Shown in pieces: positions 4,595-38,670 of a stretch of DNA of 64,000 nucleotides. Position 1 is the first letter of the stretch; each line of letters starts with the position of its first letter. The notes under the pieces were generated by a model that worked only from the letters and a program-made list of their open reading frames with translations, was not told the DNA's origin and ran no database searches. The position numbers and the translations under genes are program-made. Origin of the DNA: Myxococcales bacterium (lineage in GTDB: Bacteria; Myxococcota_A; Polyangia; GCA-2747355); the NCBI GenBank assembly GCA_020431405.1, contig JAGQIK010000362.1:9858-73857 (forward strand), read 5' to 3'.

Positions 4595-6649
<2,055 letters not shown>

Positions 6650-6653
6650 GACG

Positions 6654-7526: not shown

Positions 7527-7539
7527 ATTCTGCTGGGCG

Positions 7540-9651: not shown

Positions 9652-9727
9652 GGCGGTCCTCTTTGCACAGCTGGGGCCAGTCAAGCCAGCCTTAAATGCG
9701 TGAAATCGCGCAGGCCGGTCGGGTCAG

Positions 9728-10942: not shown

Positions 10943-11113
10943 AGGGTCGGGAGCCTATCACCCCTCAGATTTCCGACGAGCGCGCGCTGCCGCCGCGCGG
11001 AATTTTGACCTGCCGCCCCTCGAAATCACAGCGTTTGTCTGTGCCAGCGCGAAGGTACGGCGCTTGCTTTTTCAACAGCGATGGCACCTTACGAACGCTC
11101 AAGGGGGAAGGCG

Positions 11114-14419: not shown

Positions 14420-14500
14420 CACGCACGTCCTGCTAGCGAACAACTGACGCCCGCCACGTTTGCTCGGGGAAGACGTGGCGGGCGTCGTCTATGTGAAGCG

Positions 14501-15490: not shown

Positions 15491-15506
15491 CGCGCAGCGC
15501 CGATCG

Positions 15507-17612
15507 CTAGTCGCCGTGGGCAACGAGCTGAGCTTTGGCGGCGGCCACCACGTTGTCTAGAGTGAAGCCGAACTTCTTGTGCAGCTCCTCGACGGGAGCG
15601 GACGCGCCGAACAGCTCGACACCCATCGTCGCGCCTGTCTTTCCGACGTACTTGGCCCAGCCAAAGGTCGATGACAGCTCCACGGAAACCCGCGCGTGTA
15701 GCTTTGGCGGCAGTACGTGGTCGATGTAGCCCTGATCTTGGTCTTCGAACAGCTCCCAGCAGGGCATGCTCACCACGCGGGCACGAATGCCATCCGCCTC
15801 GAGCTGCTCGTAGGCTGCGATGCACAGCGGCACCTCACTGCCCGTCGCTAGCAGGAGAACCTGCGGCTCGCCGCCGTCGGCATCCGCGAGGATGTACGCG
15901 CCGCGTTGCGCGCCTGTAGCTGGCGCGTACTTGCTGCGGTCGATGGTCGGAACGTTCTGTCGCGTGAGGATCAGCGCCACGGGGCGATGCCGCAGCTGCA
16001 TGATGACTTTCCACATCTCGACAACTTCGTTCGCGTCCCCTGGCCGAATGGTCAGCAGGTGCGGGAGGGCGCGCAATGAAGCAAGGTGCTCGACCGGCTG
16101 ATGGGTTGGTCCGTCCTCGCCGACGCTTATGGAGTCATGCGTCAGGACGTAAACAACTGGGAGCTCCATCATCGCGCTCAAGCGGATCGATGGGCGGGCG
16201 TAGTCGGAGAACACGAGGTACGTCGAGCCGTACGAACGTAGCTTGCAGAGTGACATGCCGTTGATGATCGAGCCCATGGCATGCTCGCGTACGCCGAAGT
16301 GGATGTTGTTTCCGCTGCCGTCGGACTGAAAGTCCGTGTATGCGTCGAGACGCGTCTGCGTCGACGACGCGAGGTCGGCGGAGCCACCCACGATCCAGGG
16401 GACGTTCCTCGAGAGCGCGTTGAGCACTTTGCCCGAAGCCTTGCGCAACGCGATGCCCTCCTGCGATGCCTCGAACGTGGGCAGATCTTTGTCCCAGTCG
16501 TCGGGCAGCTCGCGATGCTGCATCTTGTAGAGTCGGTCGTAGAGATCGGGAAAGGCGAGGCGGTAGCGCTCGACTCGCTCGTGCCACTGTTGGTAGAGGG
16601 CACGTCCGCGCTCACCCATGCCATCGGCAAAATGCTCGACGACACTGCTGGGAACGAAGAATTTGGCTTCTTCGGGCCAGCCGTAGTTCCGCTTGGTGAG
16701 CCGAGCTTCCTCTTCACCGAGCGGCGAGCCATGGGCCGCGGCGCTGTCTTGCTTGTTCGGTGAGCCCCAACCGATATGGCTGTCGACGATGATCAGCGTG
16801 GGACGCGTTGCTTCTGCCTTGAAGGCACGGAACGCTCTCGTCAGCTGTTCGATGTCGTTGGCGTCGTCGACCGACTGCACGTGCCAGCCTAGCGCGGCAA
16901 AACGCCCGACTACGTTTTCGCTAAACGACAGATCGGTGGGACCATCGATGGTGATCCTGTTGTTGTCGTAGATCCAGCACAGGTGGGAGAGGCCCAGATG
17001 GCCAGCGAGGGACGCCGCCTCTTGGGCAACGCCCTCCATCAGACAGCCGTCGCCGCACAGCGCGTAGACGTCAAAATCGATCAGCTCGAAGCTAGGGCGA
17101 TTGAAGTTCTTCGCCATCCAACGTTCTGCGATCGCCATGCCGACGCTGGTGGCCACGCCCTGACCCAACGGCCCCGTGGTGCACTCGACGCCCGACGTCC
17201 ACATGTGTTCTGGATGCCCAGCGCAACGAGAGCTGAGCTGGCGAAAGCTCCTGATGTCATCGAGCCGTACCGAGAGTCGACCTGGGGCCTCGTACTTTGG
17301 GTTCTTGGCCTTGACCTGCGCGAGGTGCAGCACCGCGTAGAGCAGCATCGATGCGTGGCCAATGGACAAGACAAACCGATCGCGATTGGTCCAAACCGGA
17401 TGATCAGGGTCGTAGCGTAGGAACCGCTGCCACAGCGTGTAGGCAACGGGTGCGAGCCCCATGACGGTGCCCGGATGTCCCGAGCTCGCGGCCTCGACAG
17501 CATCGATGCCCAGCGTGCGAATGGTCGTGACAGCCAGCTGCTCGATGGACAGGCGTTGCAGCAGCTCGTCTTCCAGTCGTCTCGCATCTGTCGGCTTCAA
17601 GACATCTTCCAT
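15507..17612 (-). CDS. tkt: Transketolase.
   Basis: 701 aa with a thiamine-diphosphate transketolase signature (…[18 protein letters not shown]…, …[18 protein letters not shown]…). Confidence 0.85.
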
Positions 17613-17839
17613 CGTCGAGCTGCAGCCTGCGGGATTTTTCGCGTCGTCACAGTTGGTTAGGCAGCACGGAATGCGCCCCCGAAATCTTGCGACGAGGATT
17701 TGGTTGACTCGGACACAAAAAGTACCTCACAATTAAAAAACGCGCACAAATATGAGCGAGGTGTCGAAAGCCATCTCGCTCTTGAGTTCCGTCGCTAAGG
17801 CTTTGGCTATGCGATCGAACCCGATACAAGGATCGACAA

Positions 17840-17965
17840 ATGGCGAAGAAGACCAAGAAGACGAAGAAAAAAGTCAGTCTCAAAGTCAAAGAGCTAGAGA
17901 ACGTTCGTACGCCTTTGAAGGCGCGCCAACGTTCGCGCGTGGGTGCCTGGAGCACCAGCTGGTAG
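17840..17965 (+). CDS. Small Lys-rich peptide, copy 1 of 3 (41 aa): MAKKTKKTKKKVSLKVKELENVRTPLKARQRSRVGAWSTSW.
   Basis: Not in the ORF track (below 60 aa). Conserved N-terminus and C-terminus shared with copies 2 and 3. Followed by a hairpin plus T-run terminator. The track ORF 17752..17970 is the wrong frame. Confidence 0.45.
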   Translation: MAKKTKKTKKKVSLKVKELENVRTPLKARQRSRVGAWSTSW

Positions 17966-17993
17966 TCTGAAGAAGAGGATTGCGATGTGCGCG

Positions 17994-18031
17994 TGGCCGG
18001 CCCGCAGTTTTGCGGTGCCGGCCTTTTCTTT
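17994..18031 (+). terminator. Rho-independent terminator after peptide copy 1.
   Basis: GGCCGGCCCGCA-gttt-TGCGGTGCCGGCC followed by TTTTCTTT. Confidence 0.5.
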
Positions 18032-18212
18032 CCAGCTTGATCTTTCTCTGTGATGAAAAAAATCGTTGATCAGCTTACGGGAACCTGGCAACTTGATCGT
18101 ACGCGTACTGTTTCATCAAAAATGGTGGCGATGTACCGAAAGGTATGTCGCCGATAGCACTTCGATCGCTACGGCATCGCGCTATGTGGTCGGACTGCAG
18201 GAGAAGAAGAAC

Positions 18213-18362
18213 ATGTCGAAGAAGACGAAGAAAACGAAGAAGAAGGTCAGTCTCAAGGTCAAAGAGCTCGATAACCTCCGGGCCCCAGCTCCGATGCTGA
18301 AGGCGAGAGCCTCCAAGGCCATCAACCGTAGTCGCGTCGGCGCCTGGAGCACCAGCTGGTAG
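18213..18362 (+). CDS. Small Lys-rich peptide, copy 2 (49 aa): MSKKTKKTKKKVSLKVKELDNLRAPAPMLKARASKAINRSRVGAWSTSW.
   Basis: Internal ATG of the track ORF 18066..18362. Copies 2 and 3 share an upstream element of about 150 bp and the termini shared by all three copies. Terminator follows. Confidence 0.5.
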   Translation: MSKKTKKTKKKVSLKVKELDNLRAPAPMLKARASKAINRSRVGAWSTSW

Positions 18363-18389
18363 TAGGCTAGTGTGTTGCGATGTACGCGT

Positions 18390-18424
18390 GGCCGGCCTGC
18401 GTAGCGCAGGCCGGTCTTTTTTTG
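18390..18424 (+). terminator. Rho-independent terminator after peptide copy 2.
   Basis: GGCCGGCCTGCG-tag-CGCAGGCCGG (perfect 10-bp stem) followed by TTTTTTT. Confidence 0.6.
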
Positions 18425-18589
18425 CCAAGTGTCAAGAAAACTGTTGATCAACTTACGAGACGTTGGCACGATGATCATACGCGTACAATTGAGACTGTGG
18501 CGATGTGCCGAAAGGGACGACGCTTGACAGCATTTCGATCGCTACGGCAGCACCAACTGCTATGCGTACGAATTGCGGGAGTAACAGAA

Positions 18590-18733
18590 ATGTCGAAGAA
18601 GACGAAGAAGACGAAGAAGAAGGTCAGCCTCAAGGTCAAAGAGCTCGACAACCTTCGCTCACCGGCTGCGATCGCGAAAGCGAAAGCAGGCATGAGACGT
18701 AGTCGGGTCGGCGCCTGGAGCACCAGCTGGTAA
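18590..18733 (+). CDS. Small Lys-rich peptide, copy 3 (47 aa): MSKKTKKTKKKVSLKVKELDNLRSPAAIAKAKAGMRRSRVGAWSTSW.
   Basis: Internal ATG of the track ORF 18380..18733. Conserved termini. Terminator follows. Confidence 0.5.
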   Translation: MSKKTKKTKKKVSLKVKELDNLRSPAAIAKAKAGMRRSRVGAWSTSW

Positions 18734-18758
18734 GTTAGCGCCAGCTGAGTGTACGCGT

Positions 18759-18798
18759 GGCCGGTCTGCGAAAGCAGGCCGGCCATTTCTTTTTTCAC
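18759..18798 (+). terminator. Rho-independent terminator after peptide copy 3.
   Basis: GGCCGGTCTGCG-aaa-GCAGGCCGGCC followed by ATTTCTTTTTT. Confidence 0.5.
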
Positions 18799-18831
18799 GC
18801 CTCTTCTTTTCTCACGGAGCTTGCTTCGCGT

Positions 18832-19899
18832 TCATCGCTCGAGACGTTCTGAAACCAGCTTCCTGCACTCACCCGCGATGGCGATTGTCTCTTCGAGCTT
18901 GGCTTTCGACGGACTACTGTCGTTCGGCTCGTAGAGCGCTTGATGCAAGACGTCGAGCTGGGCTTGCATCTCGTCGAGCATCGGCGCGTTGAGCGCGAGG
19001 TGACACCGCTCTTTGACCTGCTGGATCTCCTCGCTGGTCAACGCGGCGGGGACACGCGGCAGCTTGCTGGGCTCCTGCGGCGAGACGGGCTCGTCGCGCG
19101 AATAGCCCAATAGCTCGAGCAATGGGCCTGCCATGGTCGAGATGCCGTGCTTGATGTCGTCAGGCAAGGCTGCTTGCCAACCGCCCGCGCGCCCTTTGCG
19201 AACGTGTCCCGGCGCGGTCTTCTTCATCGACGACACATGAAGCTCACTCGCCATCGCCGCTTTCACGTCGCCCGAGAGCGACACGCCGAGGTAGTCGAGC
19301 AACCGGTCGAGCTCGTTGTCGAAGTCGTGCCGCAGACGCTCGTAGCAGATGATGTGGATATCATGCTGGTCCCTGTGAGCGAGGTAGCCCAAGACGTGGT
19401 TGATCCAGTCCTTAGTCCGCGCCATCCAGCTGTCACGATACTGCTCTTCGATCGACCCCAAGGGGGCGAGGGTGCTGTAGCGCTGTATGTAGGGCATACG
19501 CTGGAAGTGCGCGAACGAGACAACCACATCGCGAACATCGCGCACGATATAGACCGTCTTGTCGAACCGCTCGAGTAGCCGTCCACTCCAAGGGTCCTGC
19601 CACGGCGAGTGGCTCCAGCCATGAGTTGTCTTGCTCGCGAAGTCATCGAGGTCTTCGATGGGCCAGTGGAATATCGCCGGTATCCAGAACCAAATACCGC
19701 GGCGCACGACGCTGATGCAGTCGAGATCTGCTTGGTTTGGAAAGGAGAGATCAGGCCAGGTCTTGAACAGCGGGTAGATCGGCAGCGTGTGGACGTAGCG
19801 CGTGTTGGGCCAACCCGCGCGCTCGACGATCGCGTTGAGCGTCTGATACAGCCAGTAGTTGCCACTCTTCTCGACGCCGATCTGGAGGATCTTGGGCAT
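18832..19899 (-). CDS. Sulfotransferase-family protein (PAPS-dependent). It is a paralogue of the upstream gene.
   Basis: 5'-PSB-like loop IGVEKSGNYWL and 3'-PB motif YIVRDVRDVVVSF. About 355 aa. ATG 4 nt after the upstream gene's stop. Confidence 0.6.
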   Translation of the reverse strand: MPKILQIGVEKSGNYWLYQTLNAIVERAGWPNTRYVHTLPIYPLFKTWPDLSFPNQADLDCISVVRRGIWFWIPAIFHWPIEDLDDFASKTTHGWSHSPWQDPWSGRLLERFDKTVYIVRDVRDVVVSFAHFQRMPYIQRYSTLAPLGSIEEQYRDSWMARTKDWINHVLGYLAHRDQHDIHIICYERLRHDFDNELDRLLDYLGVSLSGDVKAAMASELHVSSMKKTAPGHVRKGRAGGWQAALPDDIKHGISTMAGPLLELLGYSRDEPVSPQEPSKLPRVPAALTSEEIQQVKERCHLALNAPMLDEMQAQLDVLHQALYEPNDSSPSKAKLEETIAIAGECRKLVSERLER

Positions 19900-19903
19900 G
19901 CTA

Positions 19904-20983
19904 TTACTCGACGCCTTCTTCTAGGTCCGATTCAGCTCGAGTGAGCTCCGCAAACGCTTCGAGGCTCGCGACCAGCTTGTCCACCTCGCGCCCTAACACG
20001 CCGCCACCTCTGATCGCAGGAATGTTCGCGAACCACCGCGCCTGCTCGACGGTCTGTGATATGGCGTAGTCGATCGGGACCTCGAGCGCCTCTTCGGTGA
20101 TCTCGGCCAACGCCTCATTGTCTATCTGGTCTGGAACACGCGGCAGCGATGACGGATCGCTCCAGTCCCGCGGAGCGTCATCTAGCGGATAGCCCAGCAG
20201 CTCCAGCAACGGCTCTGCCATATCGGTAATGTCGGCCTTCATCGTGTCCGACAAGCTCTCGCTCCAACCACCGGACTTCCCTGAACGCACATGCGCCGGT
20301 GACGCTGCTTTCATCGTCCTAACAGATACGTCGTCTGCTATTTGGTCGATCTGTGCATCTGACAGAGAGATCTCGAGATAGTCTAGGAGCCTTCGGTATT
20401 CGCTTTGGAAGTCGTACCGAAGGCGCTCGTAGCAGACAAAGTGGATATTGAAACGCTCGCGCTGAGCCAGGTGCTGCGAGACATGTGTTATCCAGTACTG
20501 CGTCCGCAGCAGCCACGCCTTATCGAGGTAGCTGATCGGGTCCTCACTGAGATCGACCATGCTGTAGCGTTGGACAAAGGGCATGAACTGAAAGTGGCAG
20601 AACGACAGCAGTACGTCGCGAGGATCGCGGATGATATAGACGACCTTGTCGAAGCGTTCGAACACCGCCGCGCTTGTTGGTCCAAACCAGTTCGAGTGGG
20701 TCCAAGCGTGGGTCGTCTTGGCCGCAAAGTCATCGAGGTCTTCTATCGGCCAAAAGAAGATCAGCGGAATGTAGTAGAAGACCTTATCGGGCGTGATGTT
20801 AAGAAAGTCGATATCCGGCTGATCGGGAAACGACAGGTCAGGCCACGTCTGGTGTAGTGGATATATCGGGTGGCTACGAGCGTAGCGGCGCCAGGGCAGC
20901 CCGGCAGCCTTGGCGGTCTTGTCGAGGTTGTTGTAGAGCCAGTAGTTACCGCTCTTCTCGACGCCGATCTGCAGGATCTTCAA
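19904..20983 (-). CDS. Sulfotransferase-family protein (PAPS-dependent).
   Basis: IGVEKSGNYWL and YIIRDPRDVLLSFCHF motifs. TTG start. Translationally coupled to the downstream paralogue. Confidence 0.6.
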   Translation of the reverse strand: MKILQIGVEKSGNYWLYNNLDKTAKAAGLPWRRYARSHPIYPLHQTWPDLSFPDQPDIDFLNITPDKVFYYIPLIFFWPIEDLDDFAAKTTHAWTHSNWFGPTSAAVFERFDKVVYIIRDPRDVLLSFCHFQFMPFVQRYSMVDLSEDPISYLDKAWLLRTQYWITHVSQHLAQRERFNIHFVCYERLRYDFQSEYRRLLDYLEISLSDAQIDQIADDVSVRTMKAASPAHVRSGKSGGWSESLSDTMKADITDMAEPLLELLGYPLDDAPRDWSDPSSLPRVPDQIDNEALAEITEEALEVPIDYAISQTVEQARWFANIPAIRGGGVLGREVDKLVASLEAFAELTRAESDLEEGVE

Positions 20984-21069
20984 CAGAGGAACCCTTCTCT
21001 TAGGACGGTAGTCCCACAGGGTGCTACATGTCGCACGCTGGATGCATTACGTAAATCACGCTAGCCCAA

Positions 21070-22605
21070 TTGGTCTCTACACGCAACCTGGCTCGACGGC
21101 AGCTGGAGTTGTTGGAACATAGCGGAAATGCACGATACGAAGCTCCGCGCGAGGAAATAAGACGAATGGTCGATTTCAGGTCAAGCGATCCACGATGGCA
21201 CGAGTTGGCCAAGCACTTCTCTCGGTCGCAGGAGCAGCGCTACCACTTACTTGCTGGACTTCCGGTCGACGCGCAGGTGCGCGCCGTGTCTCTCGCGATG
21301 GTGCGTCGATTGGCCGAGGAGCTGCTCGAGTCTGAAAGCGAACCGCTGGCCCGCGGCACGCTGATCGCATTTCGTCAGTTCGACTATCTCGCTTCGGCAG
21401 AGCGCGACGTCTACGAGTGCCAGAGACGCATCGTTCTCGAGGACTCCGACAGCTCGCGCATCACGCCGCAGGGCATGCAGCCGCGTCTGTACCGCGAGAA
21501 GAGTGCGGCGCGCAGGCAACAGATCGCGCAATGGTGGGCCGATCAGAGCGAACAGGTCGCTGAAGCCGCCACGCGCCGGCGATCGGCGCTCTGGGAGATG
21601 GCGCAGGAGCTCGGTCTCGACCCACTCTCCGACTTTCTCACGACCGAGGCGCTCGACCTCGAGACGATCCGCCACACGATCGAGAGCATCGCCCTTCGTT
21701 GCGGCAGCCTGTTTCAGTCGACCTTCGATGCGCTTCGAGAGCGCGAGTATGGCCAAGAGCTCGCCGAGCCATGGGTCGATCTGTGGGCGTTGTTCTTGCC
21801 AACGGCGCCGCTCCCGACGTCGCTCTCTCCAAGCGAGACGTTTCGCCGACTGGCTGATGGAATGGGATTCGCGACGTCTTCGATCTCGATCGACGAGGAG
21901 GCGCGACCGGAGAAAGCACCCATTCCAACCGTCGTGCCTGTTGGCCCTGGCGACATCCGCGTCGCGTTTCAGCCGTTGGGGGCGCTCGCCGATCTGCGGG
22001 CGCTCTTGCACGAGTGTGGGCACGCGCTCCACTACAGCTGCATGGATCAGACGCTGCTGCCCCCCGATCGGCGTCCCTCAGCTGGCGCTGCTGAGGTTCA
22101 CTCTTACTTGCTCCAGACGCTGTTGCTCCAACGCGATTTTCTGGAGGGATTTCTCCAGTGCCCCACCTCGGCAGTCGACGACGCGCTCACCGTGGAGCGC
22201 TTTTTCAACGTCCGCATGCTGGTGCACTTCAGTGCTGCGGCGTTGACCACCATCGAGTTCTGGACGCGTGGACCACTGTCTCAACAGGTGTTGGAAGAGA
22301 CCTACGCCGAGCACTTGAGTCGCTTCACAAACATCGAGTTTCCAGCTCTGACGGCGCGCACACCTTACCCCGCCCATAGTCAGCACGCCTTCACAGCCAA
22401 CGTACACTCGCTAGGCTATCCGCTTGGATATGCGCGGGTCGGGTGGCTTCTCGAGCAGCTCGAGCTGGCTGACGCACCGTGGTGGGGCAATGCAGATGCT
22501 GTGCAGTCGATCGTCACGCCGCACATGCGCACGGGGCGGAACACGACCTTCCCGTTGGAAGCCCTCTCCGTCGACCGCTGGGCTGAACGTCTGAGCTCGG
22601 TGTAG
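21070..22605 (+). CDS. M3-like zinc metallo-oligopeptidase (PepF-like).
   Basis: LLHECGHALHY (HExGHxxH) with a Glu about 24 residues downstream (AAEVHS). 511 aa. Start is uncertain: TTG at 21070 or ATG at 21163. Confidence 0.5.
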   Translation: MVSTRNLARRQLELLEHSGNARYEAPREEIRRMVDFRSSDPRWHELAKHFSRSQEQRYHLLAGLPVDAQVRAVSLAMVRRLAEELLESESEPLARGTLIAFRQFDYLASAERDVYECQRRIVLEDSDSSRITPQGMQPRLYREKSAARRQQIAQWWADQSEQVAEAATRRRSALWEMAQELGLDPLSDFLTTEALDLETIRHTIESIALRCGSLFQSTFDALREREYGQELAEPWVDLWALFLPTAPLPTSLSPSETFRRLADGMGFATSSISIDEEARPEKAPIPTVVPVGPGDIRVAFQPLGALADLRALLHECGHALHYSCMDQTLLPPDRRPSAGAAEVHSYLLQTLLLQRDFLEGFLQCPTSAVDDALTVERFFNVRMLVHFSAAALTTIEFWTRGPLSQQVLEETYAEHLSRFTNIEFPALTARTPYPAHSQHAFTANVHSLGYPLGYARVGWLLEQLELADAPWWGNADAVQSIVTPHMRTGRNTTFPLEALSVDRWAERLSSV

Positions 22606-22623: not shown

Positions 22624-23457
22624 TTAGCCGCTGGTAGATTGATCCACCCCGGCATCCGCGCTGGGGGCGTCAGGGCCAACATCAGGCGAGGCGTCGGGGC
22701 CGACATCAGGCGAGGCGTCGAGCGCGTCGGTTCCGCCGTCAGGCGACGACGGCGCGATTCCATACAAGCCGACCGCGTCGAGGGTCACGTAGTCCGTGAG
22801 GAAGGGTCTGTTCTTGTGCCGGATCTCGGTATTGACGTGCACTATCAGCTTGTCGACGAGCTGAGTCGTTTGCGTTATCGGGATACGGAAGATGCCTGGG
22901 CAAGCGCGTGTCGGATCGTCGCCCTCCCAGACCGTGAAGGGATCTCCGCCGGCAGCTGCGACGGCCTCGACCTTGATCACTGCTCCCGGATTCTCCACCT
23001 CGACGATCTCGATGCCCGTCGCGAACACGGCCGTGCGGTACGAGAGCGTGATGGTTACCACGCCCGCACGCTGGCTGGCCGGAGCCCAAAGCTCGGGAAG
23101 AAACGAGCAAGCTAGGACATCTGGCTCGCCGACGAGCTGCTCGATGCCAAACGGGGTCTCATCCGGTGGTGCCCCCGGCACTTTGAACTCGCTGGTCCCT
23201 TCGCTGCTGGTGGCCCACTGCTTGAGGTTGGGCAGCTCGGCCATGTTGGCTCTCAGTCGTGGATCGATGGAGCAATAGCTCGTCACCCCGTGGCCGAAAG
23301 CGTGAGAGGGACAGATCAGGTTCTGGCTCTTGTCGCAGTCGTCATCAGTCTTGCAGCGCGCTCCGAGGCTGCCGTCGCCGATCGGCTTGCAGCCCGCGAC
23401 AGCGAGGCCGAACAGTAGACATGCCGAGAGGCTAAAATGCGTACTGTAGCGACGCAT
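22624..23457 (-). CDS. Hypothetical Cys-containing lipoprotein.
   Basis: Start taken at MRRYSTHFSLSACLLFGLAVAGC (lipobox) rather than the track start at 23670, which would overlap the upstream gene by 238 nt. Confidence 0.4.
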   Translation of the reverse strand: MRRYSTHFSLSACLLFGLAVAGCKPIGDGSLGARCKTDDDCDKSQNLICPSHAFGHGVTSYCSIDPRLRANMAELPNLKQWATSSEGTSEFKVPGAPPDETPFGIEQLVGEPDVLACSFLPELWAPASQRAGVVTITLSYRTAVFATGIEIVEVENPGAVIKVEAVAAAGGDPFTVWEGDDPTRACPGIFRIPITQTTQLVDKLIVHVNTEIRHKNRPFLTDYVTLDAVGLYGIAPSSPDGGTDALDASPDVGPDASPDVGPDAPSADAGVDQSTSG

Positions 23458-25564: not shown

Positions 25565-25567
25565 TGA

Positions 25568-26215: not shown

Positions 26216-26253
26216 TTGTTTGTCCTCCTATGCGCGGTCAGAGCCGCTTCGAG

Positions 26254-27152: not shown

Positions 27153-28694
27153 TCAGTAGCTTAACAGCAGGTAGCCCTTCTCCTCGAACCAGCCAAGCTC
27201 GCCCATCTCGAGCTCGTACAGGTACTCGTTGCCGGTCATGTTGCGCTCGACGTTGCGTCGCATGTCCGGCACCAGATCGCGCGCGAGGTAGCGCAGCTGG
27301 TAGAAGCGCTTGACCATGTCAGCGGGCGTGCTGTTCGTGTTGATGTGGGTGAGGTATTCGCGCGGCTTCGCGGCGAACTCCTCCTCGGTGACATATCGCT
27401 TGCTCAGCTGGCTCCAGCGCTGCCAGCCCTCGAGCGTATTCACAAGCACGTCGATGTCGTAGGCGCTCGGGTCGTCCGCAAACTTCGTACCAGGCGTCAC
27501 CATCAGATTCTCGATCCAGTAGATCTGACCGCCGAGCGCGACGACCTCGCGCATGGCTTCGTACGTCTCGCGAAACTCGCTGGCCGTCTCGCCAGGAAGG
27601 TTCGCGATCCAAGCCGTCAGCACCATGCCGCCCATGTCGCTGATCAGTCGCACGGCGTCCAAGATCTGCTCGCGCGACGAGCCGCGTCCAGTTCGCTTGA
27701 GCACCGACTTGGAGGCGCTCTCGCAACCCATCGTGAAGCGGACGAAGCCTCCATCGACCAGATTGCGTACGAGCTCGGGTCGCTTGAACAACACCGGGTG
27801 CGTCTCGAGGCGCACCGTGATGTCGAGGCCTGATGCGGCGAGCGCTTCGGCGAGCTGGCCGACGTAGCGCGGGTAGACGAACTCGCTCTCGCCGAGGAAG
27901 ATCTCTTTGAAGCCCAGTTTCTCGTAGGTGCGGATCTGCTCGATGACCCTGTCTACCGAGACGGTAGAGAGAGGTCGACGAAAGAACGACTGCCGATTGG
28001 CGACGCAGTAGCCGCATTGAAAAGGACAGAGCCCTCGCGCGATGTTGATGAACGCGCCGTAGCCCCACGTCACGTCGTCGAACGGTGGCGCGTCGGCGTT
28101 AACGATGGGCAGCTCCTCCATCGGCACGAGCGATCCGTCAGCCGGTTCGATGTAGCGTGTTCCCTGCGGGGTGCGGTGCCAGGCGCCCGCGACGGTCGTG
28201 TGGTCCTTGCCCGCGAGGGCAGCGCGGGTCAGCTCGAGCGCGGGCACCTCGCCCTCGCCCTGCACGAGCCCGTTGAGCGACGGATAGGTGGCGAGGAACT
28301 TCTCGGCGAAGCACGCACCGAAGATCCCGCCCAGATAGATCAGCGAGTCTGGATGTAGCCGGCGGTACCGCTCGGCGATCTGCGGAGCGCCGTTGCTATA
28401 GAGGTGCCAGTGCGCTTGGATGCCGACCCACGCAGCGGGATGGGCGGCGAGAATCGCGTCCAGGTCCCACTCGAGGTCGTTGTCCTCGACGAACAGGCGC
28501 TCCGAGTCCATGTGCAGCAGCTTCACGCGCAGGCCGTTGTCGTGAAGAAACTGCGCGATCGACAGCATCCCTATCGGTGCGTTCGACTCGAGGGTGAGGC
28601 CCGAGTCTCGAGGTGTTCCATCGGCCTCGTAACCGTGATGGGGTGCGATGAGCAGAGCGTCGTACTCGCCGCCGCGTCCATGAAATGCGACCAC
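27153..28694 (-). CDS. B12-binding (class B) radical SAM enzyme, a putative C-methyltransferase or similar maturase.
   Basis: CPFQCGYC (CxxxCxxC). A …FTMGCESASKSVLKR… radical SAM core. A Rossmann-like N-terminal domain (LTVVAFHGRGGEYDALLIAP…). Start taken as the GTG at 28694, which is preceded by AAGGA. The track ORF extends to 28898, overlapping the YcaO gene. Confidence 0.65.
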   Translation of the reverse strand: MVAFHGRGGEYDALLIAPHHGYEADGTPRDSGLTLESNAPIGMLSIAQFLHDNGLRVKLLHMDSERLFVEDNDLEWDLDAILAAHPAAWVGIQAHWHLYSNGAPQIAERYRRLHPDSLIYLGGIFGACFAEKFLATYPSLNGLVQGEGEVPALELTRAALAGKDHTTVAGAWHRTPQGTRYIEPADGSLVPMEELPIVNADAPPFDDVTWGYGAFINIARGLCPFQCGYCVANRQSFFRRPLSTVSVDRVIEQIRTYEKLGFKEIFLGESEFVYPRYVGQLAEALAASGLDITVRLETHPVLFKRPELVRNLVDGGFVRFTMGCESASKSVLKRTGRGSSREQILDAVRLISDMGGMVLTAWIANLPGETASEFRETYEAMREVVALGGQIYWIENLMVTPGTKFADDPSAYDIDVLVNTLEGWQRWSQLSKRYVTEEEFAAKPREYLTHINTNSTPADMVKRFYQLRYLARDLVPDMRRNVERNMTGNEYLYELEMGELGWFEEKGYLLLSY

Positions 28695-28717
28695 CGTCAG
28701 TCCTTTTGATTCGTCAT

Positions 28718-30850
28718 CTACACGACGGGGGGAGGTAACCAACCCCTGCTCGGCAGCGACGCAACGCCGTGACGCCACAGTCGGGACCGTCCAAGGCGTG
28801 GCGTGCCGAAGTGCAGTGGTAGAAGTCCCGGTACCAACGCCCGCACGACGCGCAGTGACGTGTTGTGCGAAATGTCGGTCGTCGTGATGTCGACCCACTT
28901 CACAGTATGCCCGTGGTCAGCGAGGAAGGCCACGAGTTCGTCCAAGGTGAGCGTACGCGAGCGGCGCGATGAAAAAGCTCCACCTGCTCCACGACCAAAC
29001 CAATCCGCGGTGGAGTGGTGGCCGGGTGTCGCGTAGAGCTTGAGCACTTCCGCCGGCCGTGTCGGATGCTCCATGAGCGGCACCTCGTCGAGAATGCCCG
29101 CGGTAAACAGCCTGCCTACGCTTTCGAGCTCGTCGAGCACATGCTCGATGGCTCCCTCCACATCAGCGCGTGCCGCAGAGGCCAGCCAGCATGCTGGTCC
29201 CGCTGGTGAGTCGATCGGCACGAAGACGAGCGCTCCGAGCACCGTCACGACATCGAGCTGCGTGGTCAAGTCGAGCAGGCGCACGTCCGCGTTCAGCGAC
29301 TGTTCCAGCTGTCGCAGCCGTTGCAGCGCGCCGCCTGGTAACGTTTCGGCGACGATGGTCGGCGGAGCTTTGCCCCGAAGCCACCAGTACAATATGGCGT
29401 CGCGTTCGAGGAGCTCGAGGACAGCGTTTTGGATGGCCGCAGCGAGACGCGTGTGGGCGGCAACGCCGCTGCTCGTGTTGAGCACCATCGGTCTCTCGTG
29501 CCATGGCACTAAGCGCACGAAGTCGTGCGGTACGAGCTGCGCCCCGTCATCGGTCAAGTCGAAACACCAGTTCCAGTCGTAGCCTCGAAGCGGGTCGAAC
29601 GGCTGAGCCAGCAGTTGGGCGCCGTACTGAGATTGGTGATAGAGGGTCAGCTCATCGGGGTCGATGGCTTGCCCTGCCAGTGATTTTTGCGTGTGTGCAC
29701 GCACCGCCGGTGGGACGGAGAACATGCAGTAGCGCTCGACCGCTTCGGCCGCCGCCAGCAACGAGGCGCGCGCCGCGGGAGTGGCGTCGTTCGAGCTCAC
29801 CAGCGGGCCCTGCCAGGTGTTGACTTCGATGTGGTAGCCACTCGCGTCACGCACCGCGGCGTTGAAGATGCCGAGAGCAGGGGCGACCAGCCGCTCGACT
29901 TGACGCTGAACCGAGCGTGGGGGCGCTGCGGGGTCAGTGGGTGTGGCGTACGCGCGAAGTTGTCGTTGGGGCGAAGGCGGGGTCAGCTGATCTGCTCCAC
30001 GGCAAGCGGTGCATAGCGGATGTGAGATCAGGCTGGACACTGATCGCGCGCCATCGATCAGTCGTGTCACTGTCACACGGTCGCCCGGTTGCGCTGAGCA
30101 CGCCCATTGGAGCGTTGCTTCGGCGACGACAAGGCTCGCCATCATCGCCGCTGGTGTGGGGAGCTGTGGCTGTTGCAGCTCCTGGCACAACCCCCAGCGG
30201 AACCATCCCGTCCGAAGCGCGAGACATTCGAAGCAGGTGGGCGTCTTGTCCGTGACGAGCGGACCGACCCATACCTCGCTTCCGACGACGGCGGCAAACA
30301 GCACGCGGGCACGTCCCTGACGCGCCGCGCGGTTTAGCACCAACATCTTTTCGAGCACGGCGGTGTCAGGCGTGGCGAGGATCGCGAGGACCCGTCGCCC
30401 GAGCTTGGTCGAGGTCAGCGAAGCGGTGGCGATTTCCATCGACCCTCGCAACGCCTCCGCGACGCTCTGCGCGATGCGCTCGTCGTCTGCCGCGATGTGC
30501 ACCGTGCCACTGGTCGACCGCGATCTAGTGTCCGGAACCAGATGCCAGTAGGGCGCGGGGCGCTTGACGAGCTGAGCCGAGCCATCGACGGGCAACAACA
30601 CACCCAGCTCGGCGAGCTCCTCCAAGAAGGCTGAGACTTCGTCCGCTGGCAGACCGACACGGCGCGCCGCCACGTCCGCGTTGACCGGCCGTCGCGTGGC
30701 CTGCAGGACGCTCCATAGCGTCTGCACCTGCTGTGCGTCGTCGACGACCATCTCGCGTCCAGGCAGCGCGATCAGCAATTGATTGCCGCTGTGCTCGACA
30801 CATGGCCGCAGCGATACGCGAACGTCGCCTGCCAATCGATAGGTTTGCAT
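28718..30850 (-). CDS. Fused E1-like (leader-peptide-binding) / YcaO-domain protein, PatD/TruD-type cyclodehydratase-like.
   Basis: N-terminal RRE/E1-like region with a CFEC motif. C-terminal YcaO signature SSGVAAHTRLAAAIQNAVLELLERDAILYWW. About 710 aa from the ATG at 30850, which lies 17 nt after the upstream stop. Confidence 0.65.
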   Translation of the reverse strand: MQTYRLAGDVRVSLRPCVEHSGNQLLIALPGREMVVDDAQQVQTLWSVLQATRRPVNADVAARRVGLPADEVSAFLEELAELGVLLPVDGSAQLVKRPAPYWHLVPDTRSRSTSGTVHIAADDERIAQSVAEALRGSMEIATASLTSTKLGRRVLAILATPDTAVLEKMLVLNRAARQGRARVLFAAVVGSEVWVGPLVTDKTPTCFECLALRTGWFRWGLCQELQQPQLPTPAAMMASLVVAEATLQWACSAQPGDRVTVTRLIDGARSVSSLISHPLCTACRGADQLTPPSPQRQLRAYATPTDPAAPPRSVQRQVERLVAPALGIFNAAVRDASGYHIEVNTWQGPLVSSNDATPAARASLLAAAEAVERYCMFSVPPAVRAHTQKSLAGQAIDPDELTLYHQSQYGAQLLAQPFDPLRGYDWNWCFDLTDDGAQLVPHDFVRLVPWHERPMVLNTSSGVAAHTRLAAAIQNAVLELLERDAILYWWLRGKAPPTIVAETLPGGALQRLRQLEQSLNADVRLLDLTTQLDVVTVLGALVFVPIDSPAGPACWLASAARADVEGAIEHVLDELESVGRLFTAGILDEVPLMEHPTRPAEVLKLYATPGHHSTADWFGRGAGGAFSSRRSRTLTLDELVAFLADHGHTVKWVDITTTDISHNTSLRVVRALVPGLLPLHFGTPRLGRSRLWRHGVASLPSRGWLPPPVV

Positions 30851-30867
30851 CGAGCAGCTACGAAGCG

Positions 30868-33447
30868 TTAGCTCAGCATCCGTGCGAGCAGCTCCTCGCA
30901 GCCTGTGACCTCGTGCCCCTCGTTGCCCATGAACTCGTCGACCTGCGACACGGAATAGCCTCGCTGCCGCATCTCGCAATACTGCGCGAGCTCTGGCGAG
31001 ATCTCGAACACGCGTAGGGTCAGCGCGGCGCGCATGCAGTACTGGTCGCCGCTGCGCCAGACAGAGTACGGATTGCTGGTGTTGATGGGTTCGGCTGGCG
31101 GACCGCACTGCTCTACCGCGTCGTCGAACGTCAATCCGGCGTTCGCGACGAAGGGAATAGAGATCTCGAAGTTGTCGGTTGGCGCGCCGTCCTGCATGTG
31201 ACGATGAAGGTCGATGTAGATCTCGTGGCCGGTGTGGAACGCTTCTACGACCATGCTGCGCGTTGCCCGACGCCGTTGCAGGTCACAAAACTGCTCCTCG
31301 GAAAGCGGCGCCGTACACAGGCAGCGCGAGCATCGCTCGAATGCGACGCACGACTCGCAGCCTCTGCGTGCGGTCGTCTCGTTCAGGATCCGCTCGAACG
31401 CCTGCCCTACGGCGTCCATGCTCGGCGTGGTGGCATCGACCAGACCGCAGCCGCTCATGCATGGCGAGAAGCGCCCGCTGTCGTCAGAAAGGGCGACGAC
31501 AAACCCTTGCGTCGAAGGGCAGGGCTCGGCCGCCCAGCGGCAGCTGTCCAAGAACAAGAACCACGATTCTGTCAGCCAGCCAGGCATTCTGAGGTAGCCG
31601 GTACGAGCCGCGCGCGCGTTGAGTCGATCAAATGCCTCGAGGTCGTGCTCGTTGGCGACATCCAACAGCCATATGCAGTAGCGGTTGGAGCTGCGTGGCA
31701 GCGTCGCGGGCGGCTCGTCGACAAGCTCGCCATCGCCGTTTTCGATGAGCCTGATGCTGATCGTGGGGCTGTCACAGACCGCGTTGAGCGGGTCCTCCTT
31801 GCCGCGTGGCGCCGGAGTCTCGCTCGAGCGAGGCTTGCCGCCGAGGACCGTGACGTGCAGCGGGCTTGCTTCGAGCCAGTGCTCGTACGTGCTCAGTGGC
31901 TGTTCGGCGAAGCGGAACATCGGCGCAGTCGCGGGGGCGATGTCCATCAACGGTGTCGGATTGGTGACGGAGGCAACGGCCGGCATCATCAGCGTGTCGA
32001 GGTCGAGCGTGGGAGCGTGCAGTAGCGTTCGAACGCCAGGGATGATCAGTCCAACCATAGGAGCCGGATCCCATCGGTTCTCTATGACCTCCCAGACGTC
32101 ACCGATGTCGTATTCGGCGTCATGGATCTGCAGCAGGCTCTTCTCGAGACGCGGCAGGTATTCGTCTCGCCGCTGGTCGAACAGGAGGAGCCCTGGCACT
32201 AGGGCCAGCAGATTCTGGTTGGTGTCGTCTGCGCCGATCGATTTGGCGAAGCGCACCGTTTCGCGAAACTCGTCTGCGCTTTGGTCGGGAATGCCAAACA
32301 TCATTCCGCAGCCAGTATGAAACCCGATCTCGTTTGCTGTCGTCACGACGCTGCGAAGGCGCTCGAGGTAGCCTTCTTCGCGCTTGTACTCGCCGTCGAT
32401 ACCTCTCTTGTGCACGACCTTGCCGAGACGACGTAGCGTTTCGGGCCCCGACGACTCGAGACCGAACGTCACCATGCGGAAGCCGGCATCAAAGAGGTGC
32501 TGCAGCATCTCGCCATTGATGCTCTCGGCTCGCGTCTCGAAGCCGAAGTGGAGCGCGAACTGTTCGGCAGCCATTCGGTCGAGCAGCTCGTCGAGCTTGC
32601 TCTTTGGTCGAGCGGTGAAGAGCAGGTCCATCAAGAACATGATCTTCAGCTCGTGAAGGCCGGTGGTCTTGTCGATTCCCCGGAAGAGGCCGTGGTCTGC
32701 TTCGCCGCGCTTGTCAGCCGCGACGAACACGTCGTTGATGTGGCTGAGATCGTCGATGACCCGGTCGGTGGAGAAGTAGCGCATGCTCGCGACGTAGTTT
32801 CTGCAGTGGCAGAACCCGCACTTGTACGCGCAGCCGATGGAGGTCGTGTAGTAGTACGGATGGTGTCCATCATCTGCGCCGTACTTCCAAGGCGGTGGGA
32901 TGATGTCGAGCTCGGCAAATCGCTCGCACGCTGGCCACGGCTCCGCTGGCGTCTCGACGTATTCGGCCCCCTTGGGCTCGGTTCGAAATACTAAGCTGCC
33001 GACGCGGTCGAGCAGCCCACGCTTGGCGTCGGCGCGTTCGAATAGCGCAAGCACGGACCAGTAGGGGTCGTAGCGAACGCAGGCGTCGAGCGGCGGGTTG
33101 TTGTCGAGGAACCAGGCAGGTTCGTGGGTCGCGTAGTCGCCCGACGCGATCTGCAGGATGTCCGGGCGACGCTCTCGCAACCCAGCGCCGAGCCATTTCA
33201 TCAGAAAATACAGCTGGGTTCCGGATGGTTGCCGGGGCGATTCGACGAAGAAGTGAACCACCTTGAGGTTGCGGTTCTCGCACAGCTCGTCGAGCAGCGC
33301 CCGTCTCGACTGGTGCAGCGACAGCACGACGCAGCCGGCTGTCCGGATCCCGCGGCTTTCGAGGATGCTTCGGCAGAAGCTCGCCTCGCGCAGACTGGCC
33401 GCGACGGTGCCGGCCCCGTCAGTAACTGCGAGGTATGTGCATGTCAT
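30868..33447 (-). CDS. B12-binding radical SAM enzyme with a C-terminal Cys-rich extension of about 350 aa.
   Basis: SIGCAYKCGFCHC (CxxxCxxC). An …FGLESSGPETLRRLGK… core. C-terminal CESCVAFERCSRCLC cluster (SPASM/twitch-like). Start is uncertain: ATG at 33447 or GTG at 33483. Confidence 0.65.
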   Translation of the reverse strand: MTCTYLAVTDGAGTVAASLREASFCRSILESRGIRTAGCVVLSLHQSRRALLDELCENRNLKVVHFFVESPRQPSGTQLYFLMKWLGAGLRERRPDILQIASGDYATHEPAWFLDNNPPLDACVRYDPYWSVLALFERADAKRGLLDRVGSLVFRTEPKGAEYVETPAEPWPACERFAELDIIPPPWKYGADDGHHPYYYTTSIGCAYKCGFCHCRNYVASMRYFSTDRVIDDLSHINDVFVAADKRGEADHGLFRGIDKTTGLHELKIMFLMDLLFTARPKSKLDELLDRMAAEQFALHFGFETRAESINGEMLQHLFDAGFRMVTFGLESSGPETLRRLGKVVHKRGIDGEYKREEGYLERLRSVVTTANEIGFHTGCGMMFGIPDQSADEFRETVRFAKSIGADDTNQNLLALVPGLLLFDQRRDEYLPRLEKSLLQIHDAEYDIGDVWEVIENRWDPAPMVGLIIPGVRTLLHAPTLDLDTLMMPAVASVTNPTPLMDIAPATAPMFRFAEQPLSTYEHWLEASPLHVTVLGGKPRSSETPAPRGKEDPLNAVCDSPTISIRLIENGDGELVDEPPATLPRSSNRYCIWLLDVANEHDLEAFDRLNARAARTGYLRMPGWLTESWFLFLDSCRWAAEPCPSTQGFVVALSDDSGRFSPCMSGCGLVDATTPSMDAVGQAFERILNETTARRGCESCVAFERCSRCLCTAPLSEEQFCDLQRRRATRSMVVEAFHTGHEIYIDLHRHMQDGAPTDNFEISIPFVANAGLTFDDAVEQCGPPAEPINTSNPYSVWRSGDQYCMRAALTLRVFEISPELAQYCEMRQRGYSVSQVDEFMGNEGHEVTGCEELLARMLS

Positions 33448-33507
33448 GGGGAATACAATACGACATCCCGCAGTAAGATCCACGCGCAGTGTGCGTCACA
33501 GAAAAAA

Positions 33508-37576: not shown

Positions 37577-37662
37577 GGGTCGCTGAGAGAACAGACGCTC
37601 GCGAGTACGATGGGGTACATTCCACCGCTCGCGCTGCGTTTTTGCAGCCTCGAGGAGGCAAC

Positions 37663-38670
37663 ATGGCGATAGTACCACAGTCCGATTCGCGCGCGCCGCT
37701 GGTCGCCGACATCATCGCGACGCTCTCAGCGGCCGCGAAGATGTCGCGAGCTCTGCAACAGGGGGTGGAGCGTTTGCGCGTCGCCCTCAAGGATGACCGC
37801 AGCCCGGTGACTGTCGCCGACCTCGCGGTGCAGGGACTCGTCGCAGCGCGACTCGCATCGAGCGAGGTGCCGATCGTCGGCGAAGAGCGCGCCGACCTCT
37901 TGCGTCGCGCTGAAGCCTCCGCGCTCACCGACGCTGTCGTCGACGCAGTCTCCGGTCCGGGAGGCTTGCCGATCGCACGTGCCGAGCTGCTCGAGGCGAT
38001 CGACTCGGCCTGCCACGATGGCAGTGCCGAGCGCTACTGGACGCTCGATCCCATCGACGGCACGAAGGGTTTCCTGCGTGGCCAGCACTACGCCATCGCT
38101 CTCGCGCTGATCGAGGGAGGCGAGGTCACCCTGGGAGCGCTGTGCTGTCCCAATCTCGGCGTCGACCCCAACGTCGTCGACTCGGCCGGGACGTTGTATG
38201 TCGCCCTGGCGGGCGCTGGTGCTTGGCAGCTGCCGGGCGGGGACGTCGAGCGTGCGGTACGGATCAAAGCCCGCTCGATCGCTTCGGGTGACGCGCTGCA
38301 GGTTTGCGAGTCGGTAGAGTCGGCACACTCGAAGCATGCCGACGCCGCTCGTATTGTGGCTCACGTGCCATTCGTCGCTGGCGAGCCAGTGCGCATGGAT
38401 AGCCAGTGCAAGTACGCGCTCGTCGCGCGTGGGGATGCCCACGCGTACCTACGCCTCCCCACGCGCGCAGACTACCGCGAGAAGATCTGGGATCACGCGG
38501 CGGGTTTGATCGTGGCTCGGGAGGCCGACGCAGTCGTCACCGACGTGCATGGGAAGGCGCTCGATTTCCGACATGGTCGGACACTCGAACAAAATCGCGG
38601 CGTGATCTGCGCCAGTCGCGGTGCGCATCAGCCCTTGGTTGATGCCTGCCAGCAGTTGGGCATTGGGTGA
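37663..38670 (+). CDS. 3'(2'),5'-bisphosphate nucleotidase (PAP phosphatase), CysQ/HAL2 / inositol monophosphatase family.
   Basis: WTLDPIDGTKGF metal-binding motif. About 335 aa. GAGGAGG Shine-Dalgarno before the ATG at 37663. Confidence 0.55.
   Translation: MAIVPQSDSRAPLVADIIATLSAAAKMSRALQQGVERLRVALKDDRSPVTVADLAVQGLVAARLASSEVPIVGEERADLLRRAEASALTDAVVDAVSGPGGLPIARAELLEAIDSACHDGSAERYWTLDPIDGTKGFLRGQHYAIALALIEGGEVTLGALCCPNLGVDPNVVDSAGTLYVALAGAGAWQLPGGDVERAVRIKARSIASGDALQVCESVESAHSKHADAARIVAHVPFVAGEPVRMDSQCKYALVARGDAHAYLRLPTRADYREKIWDHAAGLIVAREADAVVTDVHGKALDFRHGRTLEQNRGVICASRGAHQPLVDACQQLGIG

Follow-up and report, generated by a model that had tools for sequence, protein, structure and literature searches.

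The subject of this analysis is a locus in a 64,000-nucleotide stretch of DNA from a Myxococcales bacterium (GenBank assembly GCA_020431405.1, contig JAGQIK010000362.1, positions 9,858 to 73,857 of the forward strand; hereafter the window), in which three tandem cassettes, each encoding a small Lys-rich peptide, converge on a pair of sulfotransferase genes. The small peptide genes are under selection as proteins, the sulfotransferases retain their catalytic residues, and the window also holds two blocks of genes of the kind that act on peptides made by ribosomes and modified after translation (RiPPs), one of them built around a fused E1-like/YcaO heterocyclase flanked by two B12-type radical S-adenosylmethionine (SAM) enzymes. 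Judged by its gene context, the locus is probably an orphan, new variant of YcaO/radical-SAM RiPP cluster in which sulfation is possible. We favor reading the cassettes as leader–core precursors for the RiPP enzymes of the window because tandem peptides without known relatives adjoin sulfotransferases and lie 10–30 kb from peptide-modifying enzymes, and we consider this reading to stand at about an even chance. That the peptide is also sulfated as a tailoring step is a more tentative proposal, which we think somewhat unlikely.

Three tandem cassettes encode conserved small proteins

The cassettes occupy the sole intergenic gap in the window that exceeds about 320 bp (17,613–18,831). A unit of ∼375 bp is present there three times, head-to-tail on the plus strand between 17.70 and 18.80 kb, and its non-coding parts are repeated along with its open reading frame (ORF) (Table 1). 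A preliminary description of this DNA, made from the sequence alone, had placed three ORFs of 41, 49 and 47 aa here in this orientation, and its statements about the sequence are confirmed. The annotation of the source metagenome-assembled genome (MAG) lists two of the three as hypothetical proteins, that of cassette 2 as a 58-aa product (P0001) and that of cassette 3 as P0002.

The three peptides share an invariant N-terminal module of 23 residues, M[AS]KKTKKTKKKVSLKVKEL[DE]N[LV]R, in which a Lys/Thr-rich stretch is followed by the alternating, strand-like sequence VSLKVKELDNL. They also share an invariant C-terminus, RSRVGAWSTSW, that ends at the stop codon. Between these ends lies a linker of 7–15 residues that differs from copy to copy by in-frame indels and substitutions. 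The peptides have a pI of ∼11.6, 14–15 Lys plus Arg residues, two Trp, and neither Cys nor Tyr; the absence of Tyr and the conserved GAWSTSW had already been pointed out.

Comparison of the paralogues by the Nei–Gojobori method gives proportions of synonymous differences (pS) of 0.32–0.55 against proportions of non-synonymous differences (pN) of 0.09–0.13. Over the 23 N-terminal and 11 C-terminal codons, copies 2 and 3 differ by six synonymous changes and no non-synonymous ones. At one Ser position copy 1 uses TCG where copies 2 and 3 use AGT, every indel among the paralogues is in frame, and the alternative reading frames are not conserved among the three copies. Because of the synonymous excess, the TCG/AGT switch and the in-frame indels, the substitution pattern identifies the small ORFs as real protein-coding genes under protein-level purifying selection.

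Each copy also has its own upstream element and hairpin/T-run terminator, as the preliminary description had stated. The upstream elements resemble, if weakly, sigma-70-like −35/−10 pairs: a promoter scan recovered the pair of cassette 1 only, and those of cassettes 2 and 3, which are weak, were read off the alignment. We rejected a sigma-54 promoter, to which TGGCAC and TGGCAA in cassettes 2 and 3 might point, since cassette 1 does not keep the GG and the match to a −12 element is poor. The 5' leaders are 100–115 nt long (∼100 nt in cassette 1; 18098–18212, with two hairpins, in cassette 2) and contain a conserved hairpin with a GAAA tetraloop at its tip, seen also in cassette 1, plus a second hairpin. 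Compensatory changes occur at 3 of the 26 predicted pairs across the three copies, and the folding z-scores are −2.4, −2.4 and −1.0. Each ATG is preceded by a Shine–Dalgarno-like sequence at a suitable distance. In each terminator a T-run follows a G+C-rich hairpin of 12–13 bp (z-scores −2.4 to −3.9); a terminator scan detected two of them and folding supported all three. The T-run of cassette 3 ends at about position 18797 and the stop codon of the first sulfotransferase gene lies at 18832–18834, which leaves the gap of ∼35 bp previously noted between the last terminator and the 3' end of that gene. A search of the cassettes with the Rfam 15 covariance models gave nothing near the gathering scores (lowest E 1.9 at 17.3 bits; top score 18.8 bits).

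Seven copies of GTACGCGT[AG], a motif with the palindrome ACGCGT inside it, are present in the window where 1.2 are expected, and five of the seven fall within the cassettes. Sites at 18099–18108, 18382–18390, 18478–18486 and 18751–18759 lie near the putative transcription start or just before the terminator. The motif could be an operator, or an element through which the 5' and 3' parts of the transcripts pair.

Database searches returned no relatives of the peptides. A word-indexed phmmer search of 5.8 billion protein clusters found only the peptides themselves, and back-translated patterns of the N-terminus gave no confirmed match in 185,579 species genomes and 241 million metagenome records. 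A degenerate DNA pattern for VGAW[ST]T[ST]W followed by a stop codon matched genome contigs 25 times, in every case by chance when inspected. A profile hidden Markov model (HMM) of the peptides, run against 1.84 billion representatives, recovered the peptides and one further protein, P0033, of 662 aa. This protein consists of nine identical 73-aa repeats (MALSANQYGLKVQSLENIL...), each matching at about 13 bits, and we judged the match spurious because its 120 bits only sum nine weak repeat matches. P0033 is probably an assembly or tandem-repeat artefact unrelated to the peptides.

Two intact sulfotransferases adjoin the cassettes

The two minus-strand genes facing the cassettes, whose coding sequences are separated by 4 nt between the stop codon of sulfotransferase 2 and the ATG of sulfotransferase 1, had been described as sulfotransferases with motifs resembling those that bind 3'-phosphoadenosine 5'-phosphosulfate (PAPS). 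The family HMM search bears this out: both proteins match Pfam Sulfotransfer_1 (PF00685) with E ∼5e-21 and 75 bits against a cut-off of 22. The motifs GVEKSGNYWL (GxxKSGNxWL), RD[VP]RDV..S, W-[ST]-HS and HVRxG are invariant in 23 aligned members of the clade, including both proteins of the window. The features by which we recognized PAPS sulfotransferases, namely a PKxGTTW-like 5'-phosphosulfate-binding loop, a 3'-phosphate RxxxD...S motif, a catalytic His and the SULT alpha/beta fold, are all present. An AlphaFold2 (AF2) model of sulfotransferase 1, built with 23 homologues, has a mean predicted local distance difference test score (pLDDT) of 90.2, and the top 50 PDB matches found for it by Foldseek are all sulfotransferases bound to PAPS or its desulfated product PAP (probability 1.00, TM score 0.5–0.65), the best being cytosolic SULTs. 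By sequence and predicted structure, then, the pair are PAPS-dependent SULT-like sulfotransferases with intact catalytic residues.

Their closest relatives are 33–41% identical and ∼310 aa long. Sulfotransferase 1 has a C-terminal two-helix extension of ∼65 aa (residues 289–323 and 332–354), which most aligned relatives lack or have in much shorter form. At alignment columns 73–87 (residues ∼66–79 of sulfotransferase 1) the relatives read FYRISSxFR where the window proteins read IWFWIPAIFHW and VFYYIPLIFFW. This aromatic-rich segment and the extra helices (residues ∼270–355) may reflect a changed acceptor.

A separate observation concerns a locus (L033, positions 1244–16981) of a Caldilineaceae MAG (JAXLWB010000020.1), which holds a PqqD-domain protein, many glycosyltransferases of the GT2 and GT4 families and at least four sulfotransferases. 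Its small ORFs were considered as precursors beside the sulfotransferase and PqqD genes and look like gene fragments.

RiPP-type enzymes elsewhere in the window

A three-gene operon encodes the E1-like/YcaO fusion between two radical SAM proteins (Table 1). In addition to its YcaO domain (PF02624), the fusion matches TIGR03604 (E 1.6e-48; 165 bits against a cut-off of 219) and TIGR03882 (E 3.9e-8; 33.7 against 36.9), both below cut-off. Its best PDB matches are TruD, MusD and LynD, and its N-terminus gives a weak winged-helix signal. An intrinsic terminator at about 33505–33545 separates the operon from the lipoprotein gene upstream. Fused C–D cyclodehydratases of this kind define clusters for thiazole/oxazole-modified microcins (TOMMs) and need a precursor that bears Cys, Ser or Thr (PMC4603692). 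No precursor gene lies beside the YcaO operon, whose flanking gaps are shorter than 120 bp, one of them containing a terminator.

The second block comprises an E1-like protein that has no Pfam match and aligns locally (E 3e-5) with the CxxC region of the YcaO fusion's E1-like domain, an adjacent FAD_binding_4 oxidase, a HlyD adaptor, an M16 peptidase and an 868-aa protein in which a PqqD-like RiPP recognition element (RRE) is fused to an M50 metalloprotease and a HlyD domain. This last protein matches the model for the 'daptide biosynthesis intramembrane metalloprotease' (E 1.7e-33) as well as a YydH/LiaK family model. With the M16 peptidase and a second HlyD protein encoded beside it, the PqqD–M50–HlyD fusion forms part of an unusual protease/exporter arrangement. 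The established leader peptidases of RiPP pathways include enzymes of the M16 and M50 families but not of M3 (PMC10885120). No small gene was found adjoining either RiPP block, and a scan of every intergenic gap in the 64 kb revealed no credible small gene other than those of the three cassettes. A multi-copy tandem arrangement of small genes is characteristic of RiPP precursors.

These hallmark genes (the fused E1-like/YcaO protein, the two B12-type radical SAM proteins, the PqqD–M50–HlyD fusion and the M16 peptidase) had escaped the first reading of the sequence, and they strengthen its suggestion of a RiPP-like locus. The part of that suggestion that tied the peptides specifically to the sulfotransferases finds no support beyond the adjacency of the genes, and the 88 loci that contain sulfotransferase relatives have no relatives of the peptides.

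Also in the window are a HAL2-type 3'(2'),5'-bisphosphate nucleotidase (PAP phosphatase) and an anion symporter of the DASS/SLC13 type. A PAP phosphatase clears the by-product of PAPS-dependent sulfotransfer. The two may serve sulfate/PAPS metabolism or, equally, housekeeping. A 427-aa minus-strand ORF at 41430–42713 is probably spurious. The plus-strand run at 56543–63235 encodes shikimate-pathway proteins, fusions among them (a 693-aa protein with a dehydroquinate synthase as its C-terminal half, a dehydroquinase–shikimate dehydrogenase, an enolpyruvylshikimate phosphate synthase–shikimate kinase and, after these, chorismate synthase); it is ordinary metabolism and probably marks the right-hand edge of any biosynthetic cluster.

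An M3-like protein and the genes that follow it

The gene divergent from the sulfotransferase pair, across a gap of 182 bp, had been described as an M3-like peptidase. The orientation and the zinc-binding motif, HECGHALH, are as described. A Glu lies 28 residues past the first His, within GAAEVHSYLLQ, and in M3 peptidases such as thimet oligopeptidase the third zinc ligand is a Glu ∼25–29 residues downstream of HExxH. Membership of the M3 family was not sustained, as the family models score far below cut-off (PF01432, E 0.043, 13.6 bits against 27; TIGR02289, E 4.9e-4, 18.8 against 442). A PDB sequence search gave no match at E ≤ 1, and a single-sequence AF2 model (pLDDT 37) is unusable for fold assignment. 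Because of these three results, 'M3-like' is a label at the level of the motif only. Between this gene and the YcaO operon lies a minus-strand block encoding a TonB-dependent receptor and lipoproteins (22624–27042), which may or may not belong to the system.

Table 1. Features of the cassette locus and of the RiPP-type genes in the window (positions in the 64,000-nt stretch)
Feature	Coordinates	Strand	Details
Cassette 1	17704..18033	+	Promoter-like TTGACT-18-CACAAT 17704-17733; ORF 17840-17965; terminator hairpin 17995-18024 + T-run
Cassette 1 ORF product	17840-17965	+	41 aa, MAKKTKKTKKKVSLKVKELENVRTPLKARQRSRVGAWSTSW
Cassette 2	18066..18425	+	Promoter-like TTGATC-17-CAACTT 18066-18094; ORF 18213-18362 (49 aa); terminator 18390-18416 + T7
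Cassette 3	18444..18800	+	Promoter-like TTGATC-17-CACGAT 18444-18472; 5' leader; ORF 18590-18733 (47 aa); terminator 18757-18786 + T-run
Sulfotransferase 1	18832..19899	-	355 aa; PF00685 E 5.9e-21; AF2 pLDDT 90
Sulfotransferase 2	19904..20983	-	359 aa; paralogue of sulfotransferase 1, 52% identity; PF00685
M3-like gluzincin	21166..22605	+	479 aa from probable ATG 21166; ORF opens at TTG 21070 (511 aa)
Lipoprotein	22624-23458	-	Between peptides and YcaO operon
TonB-dependent receptor	23432-25564	-	Between M3-like gene and YcaO operon
Two lipoproteins	25568-26215, 26254-27042	-	Between peptides and YcaO operon
Three-gene operon	27153..33447	-	Radical SAM, fused E1-like/YcaO, B12-binding radical SAM
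B12-binding radical SAM	27153 to ~28720	-	Third gene of operon
Fused E1-like/YcaO heterocyclase	28718-30853	-	~710 aa; PF02624 E 1.4e-44
Radical SAM	30868-33447	-	859-871 aa; B12-like N-terminus, Cys-rich C-terminus
HAL2-type 3'(2'),5'-bisphosphate nucleotidase (PAP phosphatase)	37642..38670	+	TIGR01330 276.5 bits, above equivalog cut-off 267
E1-like protein	39256-41367	-	703 aa; no Pfam match
FAD_binding_4 oxidase	41448-43067	+	Beside E1-like protein
HlyD adaptor	43074-44945	-	N-terminus RRE-like by eye
M16 peptidase	44938-47289	-	Second RiPP block
PqqD(RRE)-M50 metalloprotease-HlyD fusion	47308-49914	-	868 aa; PqqD 27.2 bits against cut-off 23.4
DASS/SLC13-type anion symporter	50013-51788	-	TrkA-C domains

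A proposed pathway and its alternatives

We assign gene structure, coding selection and enzyme families from the results above and infer every step below that joins an enzyme to a substrate. In the pathway we favor, roughly the first 23 residues of each peptide would form the leader, the tolerant linker would follow, and the core would lie within RSRVGAWSTSW; the three gene copies, independently transcribed, would provide dosage, and the maturation genes would be the RiPP-type genes that follow in the window, most of them on the other strand. The core has three consecutive hydroxyl residues (Ser-Thr-Ser) that are substrates for azoline formation. The fused E1-like/YcaO protein would bind the leader and cyclodehydrate at least one of them to a (methyl)oxazoline, and the two flanking B12-type radical SAM enzymes would add methyl groups or cross-links to the core, at Trp for example. 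The FAD oxidase would possibly then oxidize the product. Removal or degradation of the leader could fall to the M16, PqqD–M50–HlyD and M3-like proteases, export could proceed via the HlyD-type adaptors, and re-uptake through the TonB-dependent receptor is possible. If the peptides are RiPP precursors, the sulfotransferases and the M3-like gene fall inside the cluster boundaries and become candidate tailoring and leader-degrading enzymes. The two SULT-like enzymes, encoded between the precursors and the core enzymes and sharing a divergent promoter region with the M3-like gene, might O-sulfate a remaining hydroxyl, and the PAP phosphatase would fit active PAPS turnover.

Several observations weigh against this pathway. 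A distance of 8.4 kb, which includes the TonB-receptor/lipoprotein operon, separates the peptide genes from the closest gene for a core enzyme, and that gene is on the other strand. RiPP precursors usually have a conserved leader and a variable core, and in these paralogues the putative core is invariant and the linker varies; invariant ends around a variable middle fail to discriminate between a precursor and a stand-alone protein. We sought an operator common to the cassettes and the promoters of the enzyme operons and found none; of these two sets of sequences, only the cassettes have GTACGCGT and GTTGATCARCTTACG. The lower G+C content over 17–21 kb is uninformative as evidence of an island because the third-position G+C content (GC3) of the genes is ordinary, and it gives no island sign. 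Among the ORFs scanned there is no FMN-dependent dehydrogenase (nitroreductase/SagB-like), an enzyme (the B protein) that is frequent in TOMM and linear azol(in)e-containing peptide (LAP) systems and not obligatory in them; the FAD_binding_4 oxidase is all that turned up. The large ORFs scanned, a set that does not cover every ORF, include no ABC_tran or Peptidase_C39 exporter. These window-level absences apply to the 64 kb, and the 90,101-bp contig runs for a further 26 kb. Synteny offers no help, because the radical SAM protein at 30868–33447 matches only itself and one 25%-identical protein among the 5.8 billion clusters and no orthologous cluster was found. On the searches described above, the peptides are likewise an orphan family, without relatives in the databases searched.

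The genomic setting of the sulfotransferase relatives also counts against a peptide substrate and bears on the rival that we take most seriously, which we consider possible and, on balance, unlikely: that the peptides are stand-alone, unmodified basic proteins (stress factors that bind nucleic acid, ribosomes or membranes, or cationic antimicrobials), that their neighbors are unrelated, and that the sulfotransferases act on a glycan or small molecule. Five of the six contexts of relatives that were looked up are glycan-type clusters, with GT2, GT4, a cytidylyltransferase, a 2-hydroxyacid dehydrogenase, NKWYS or MptE-like proteins, or a Wzt-type ABC exporter. Across 138 neighboring ORFs in 24 metagenome loci, the families met most often are additional sulfotransferases, GT2, GT1/GT4, Wzx-like flippases and epimerases. 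Moreover, a tblastn search with every gene of the window locus against 113 loci, 88 of which contain a sulfotransferase relative, found no relatives of the peptides, the M3-like protein, the YcaO protein or the radical SAM proteins. Because the relatives sit in polysaccharide or glycoconjugate clusters, the sulfotransferases appear to be of glycan or small-molecule type by descent. A Lys-rich composition with a pI of 11.6, a promoter and terminator for each copy and long structured 5' leaders would suit a regulated small protein, conserved ends around a variable linker fit a two-module protein equally well, and no regulatory motifs are shared with the enzyme operons. Against this, it would be an unlikely coincidence for a precursor-less TOMM operon and an RRE-protease/exporter to lie 10–30 kb from the only small genes in 64 kb; no glycosyltransferase or sugar-nucleotide gene was found among the ORFs scanned, near the sulfotransferases or elsewhere in the window; and no protein of known stand-alone function is homologous to the peptides.

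A quite improbable alternative keeps the sulfotransferases and dispenses with the YcaO and radical SAM enzymes: as in the RaxX/RaxST system, the adjacent pair would O-sulfate Ser/Thr of GAWSTSW and the M3-like peptidase would trim the product. The intact PAPS sulfotransferases are directly adjacent to the cassettes, ∼35 bp away and convergent, their divergence from an oligopeptidase-like gene hints at a peptide substrate, and a PAP phosphatase is present in the window. The departure of the sulfotransferases from their glycan relatives at columns 73–87 and in the extra C-terminal helical pair is in keeping with this idea, as is the sulfonation of Thr in methanobactin, for which a PF00685 enzyme has been inferred (PMC3621798). 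However, the convergent arrangement implies that the genes are not co-transcribed, the sulfotransferase relatives at the 88 loci are never beside peptides or peptidases, and the nearest structures are small-molecule SULTs rather than peptide sulfotransferases. The peptides lack Tyr, no RaxB-type ABC/C39 exporter was seen, and the precursor-less YcaO and RRE systems would be left unexplained. That the units are genes for non-coding RNAs or regulatory repeats, with ORFs that are incidental, is highly improbable. The conserved non-coding sequence, the predicted hairpins, a terminator for every unit and expected transcripts of 250–300 nt would all suit such genes, but the substitutions are protein-like, down to the TCG/AGT Ser codons and the in-frame indels, a correctly spaced Shine–Dalgarno sequence precedes each ATG, alternative frames are unconserved between the copies and there is no Rfam match (best E 1.9).

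The precursor reading can be extended to a RiPP class, from an uncultured Myxococcota bacterium, of a kind not seen before, though we regard this extended version as doubtful. It would combine a poly-Lys/Thr leader with a five- to seven-residue Trp-Ser-Thr-Ser-Trp core, a YcaO protein with two B12-radical-SAM enzymes, glycan-derived SULTs that O-sulfate Ser/Thr or a newly installed hydroxyl, an RRE–M50–HlyD fusion for processing and export and a dedicated TonB receptor that recognizes the product. The product might be a sulfated, oxazoline-bearing metallophore or signal, methanobactin-like in its logic and entirely different in its chemistry.

Significance

Should the peptides prove to be substrates, they would constitute a new RiPP family that combines azoline formation, B12-radical-SAM chemistry and possibly aliphatic O-sulfation, and a glycan-type sulfotransferase clade would have been recruited for a non-glycan role. 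To our knowledge, aliphatic O-sulfation in RiPPs is known only from methanobactins, and the enzyme responsible has never been characterized. Since billions of sequences include no relative of the putative precursors or of one core enzyme, similarity-based genome mining would probably miss the system. If the peptides instead act on their own, the interest is modest: they would be a family of small basic proteins, specific to their lineage and triplicated. The locus is a good genome-mining lead, and it owes that standing to gene context.

Comparison with known systems

M50 maturation proteases release C-terminally modified products (PMC10885120), and the 868-aa protein resembles the daptide, epipeptide and pearlin proteases DapP, EpeP/YydH and TglG in that it matches the daptide and YydH/LiaK models. 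It differs in carrying a PqqD-like RRE at its N-terminus and a HlyD domain at its C-terminus and in lying 29 kb from the peptides; neither a daptide tailoring set nor peptide aminoacyl-tRNA ligase (PEARL) enzymes were seen in the window. With the sulfotransferases of glycan clusters, the window pair shares 33–41% identity and all of the clade-invariant residues. However, those enzymes have GT2/GT4, Wzx-like flippases, cytidylyltransferases and epimerases as neighbors, none of which is found in the window, and the window enzymes diverge in the aromatic-rich segment and extend further at the C-terminus than most relatives do.

The RaxX/RaxST (sulfonatyrotide) and SslST systems, which we compared by description, resemble the locus in that a PAPS sulfotransferase is encoded beside the gene of a small ribosomal peptide. 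The RaxX system uses RaxB, a peptidase-containing ABC exporter. The window locus fails the definition of a RaxX system because its peptides have no Tyr and it has no RaxB-type exporter. Sulfated RiPPs are rare, and RaxX and the sulfonated lanthipeptides (SslST) are both sulfated on Tyr (PMC11143521), a residue that the window peptides lack; nor is there a LanM in the window.

The preliminary description called sulfation of Ser/Thr an unusual chemistry and did not present it as a known system. Aliphatic O-sulfation of a RiPP would be rare, not unprecedented: in group II (Methylocystis) methanobactins the Thr of an Ala-Ser-Thr sequence is sulfonated, and the operons include genes for a PF00685 sulfotransferase (MbnS), an FAD enzyme and a TonB-dependent transporter (PMC3621798; PMC11143521). 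The window likewise encodes PF00685 sulfotransferases, an FAD enzyme and a receptor of the TonB-dependent type, along with small peptides that contain Ser-Thr-Ser. In contrast, it lacks MbnB and MbnC (no DUF692 match among the ORFs scanned), and the oxazolone/thioamide copper ligands are impossible in its peptides because these contain no Cys. Its core enzymes are YcaO and radical SAM proteins, and its source is a Myxococcota MAG rather than a methanotroph.

Compared with TOMM/LAP and cyanobactin systems (PatD, TruD, LynD and MusD), the window has no FMN dehydrogenase and no PatA/PatG proteases, its core has no Cys, and its leader has an extreme Lys content and no relation to known leaders. 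Two B12-type radical SAM genes flank its heterocyclase gene on either side, and 8 kb would separate the enzymes from the precursors, which are on the other strand. The likeness is in the fused C–D cyclodehydratase of ∼710 aa with its winged-helix-like N-terminus, and in the multiple tandem candidate precursors with Ser/Thr in a C-terminal core. Of the systems compared, the locus appears functionally most like a heterocyclase pathway of the LAP/cyanobactin type.

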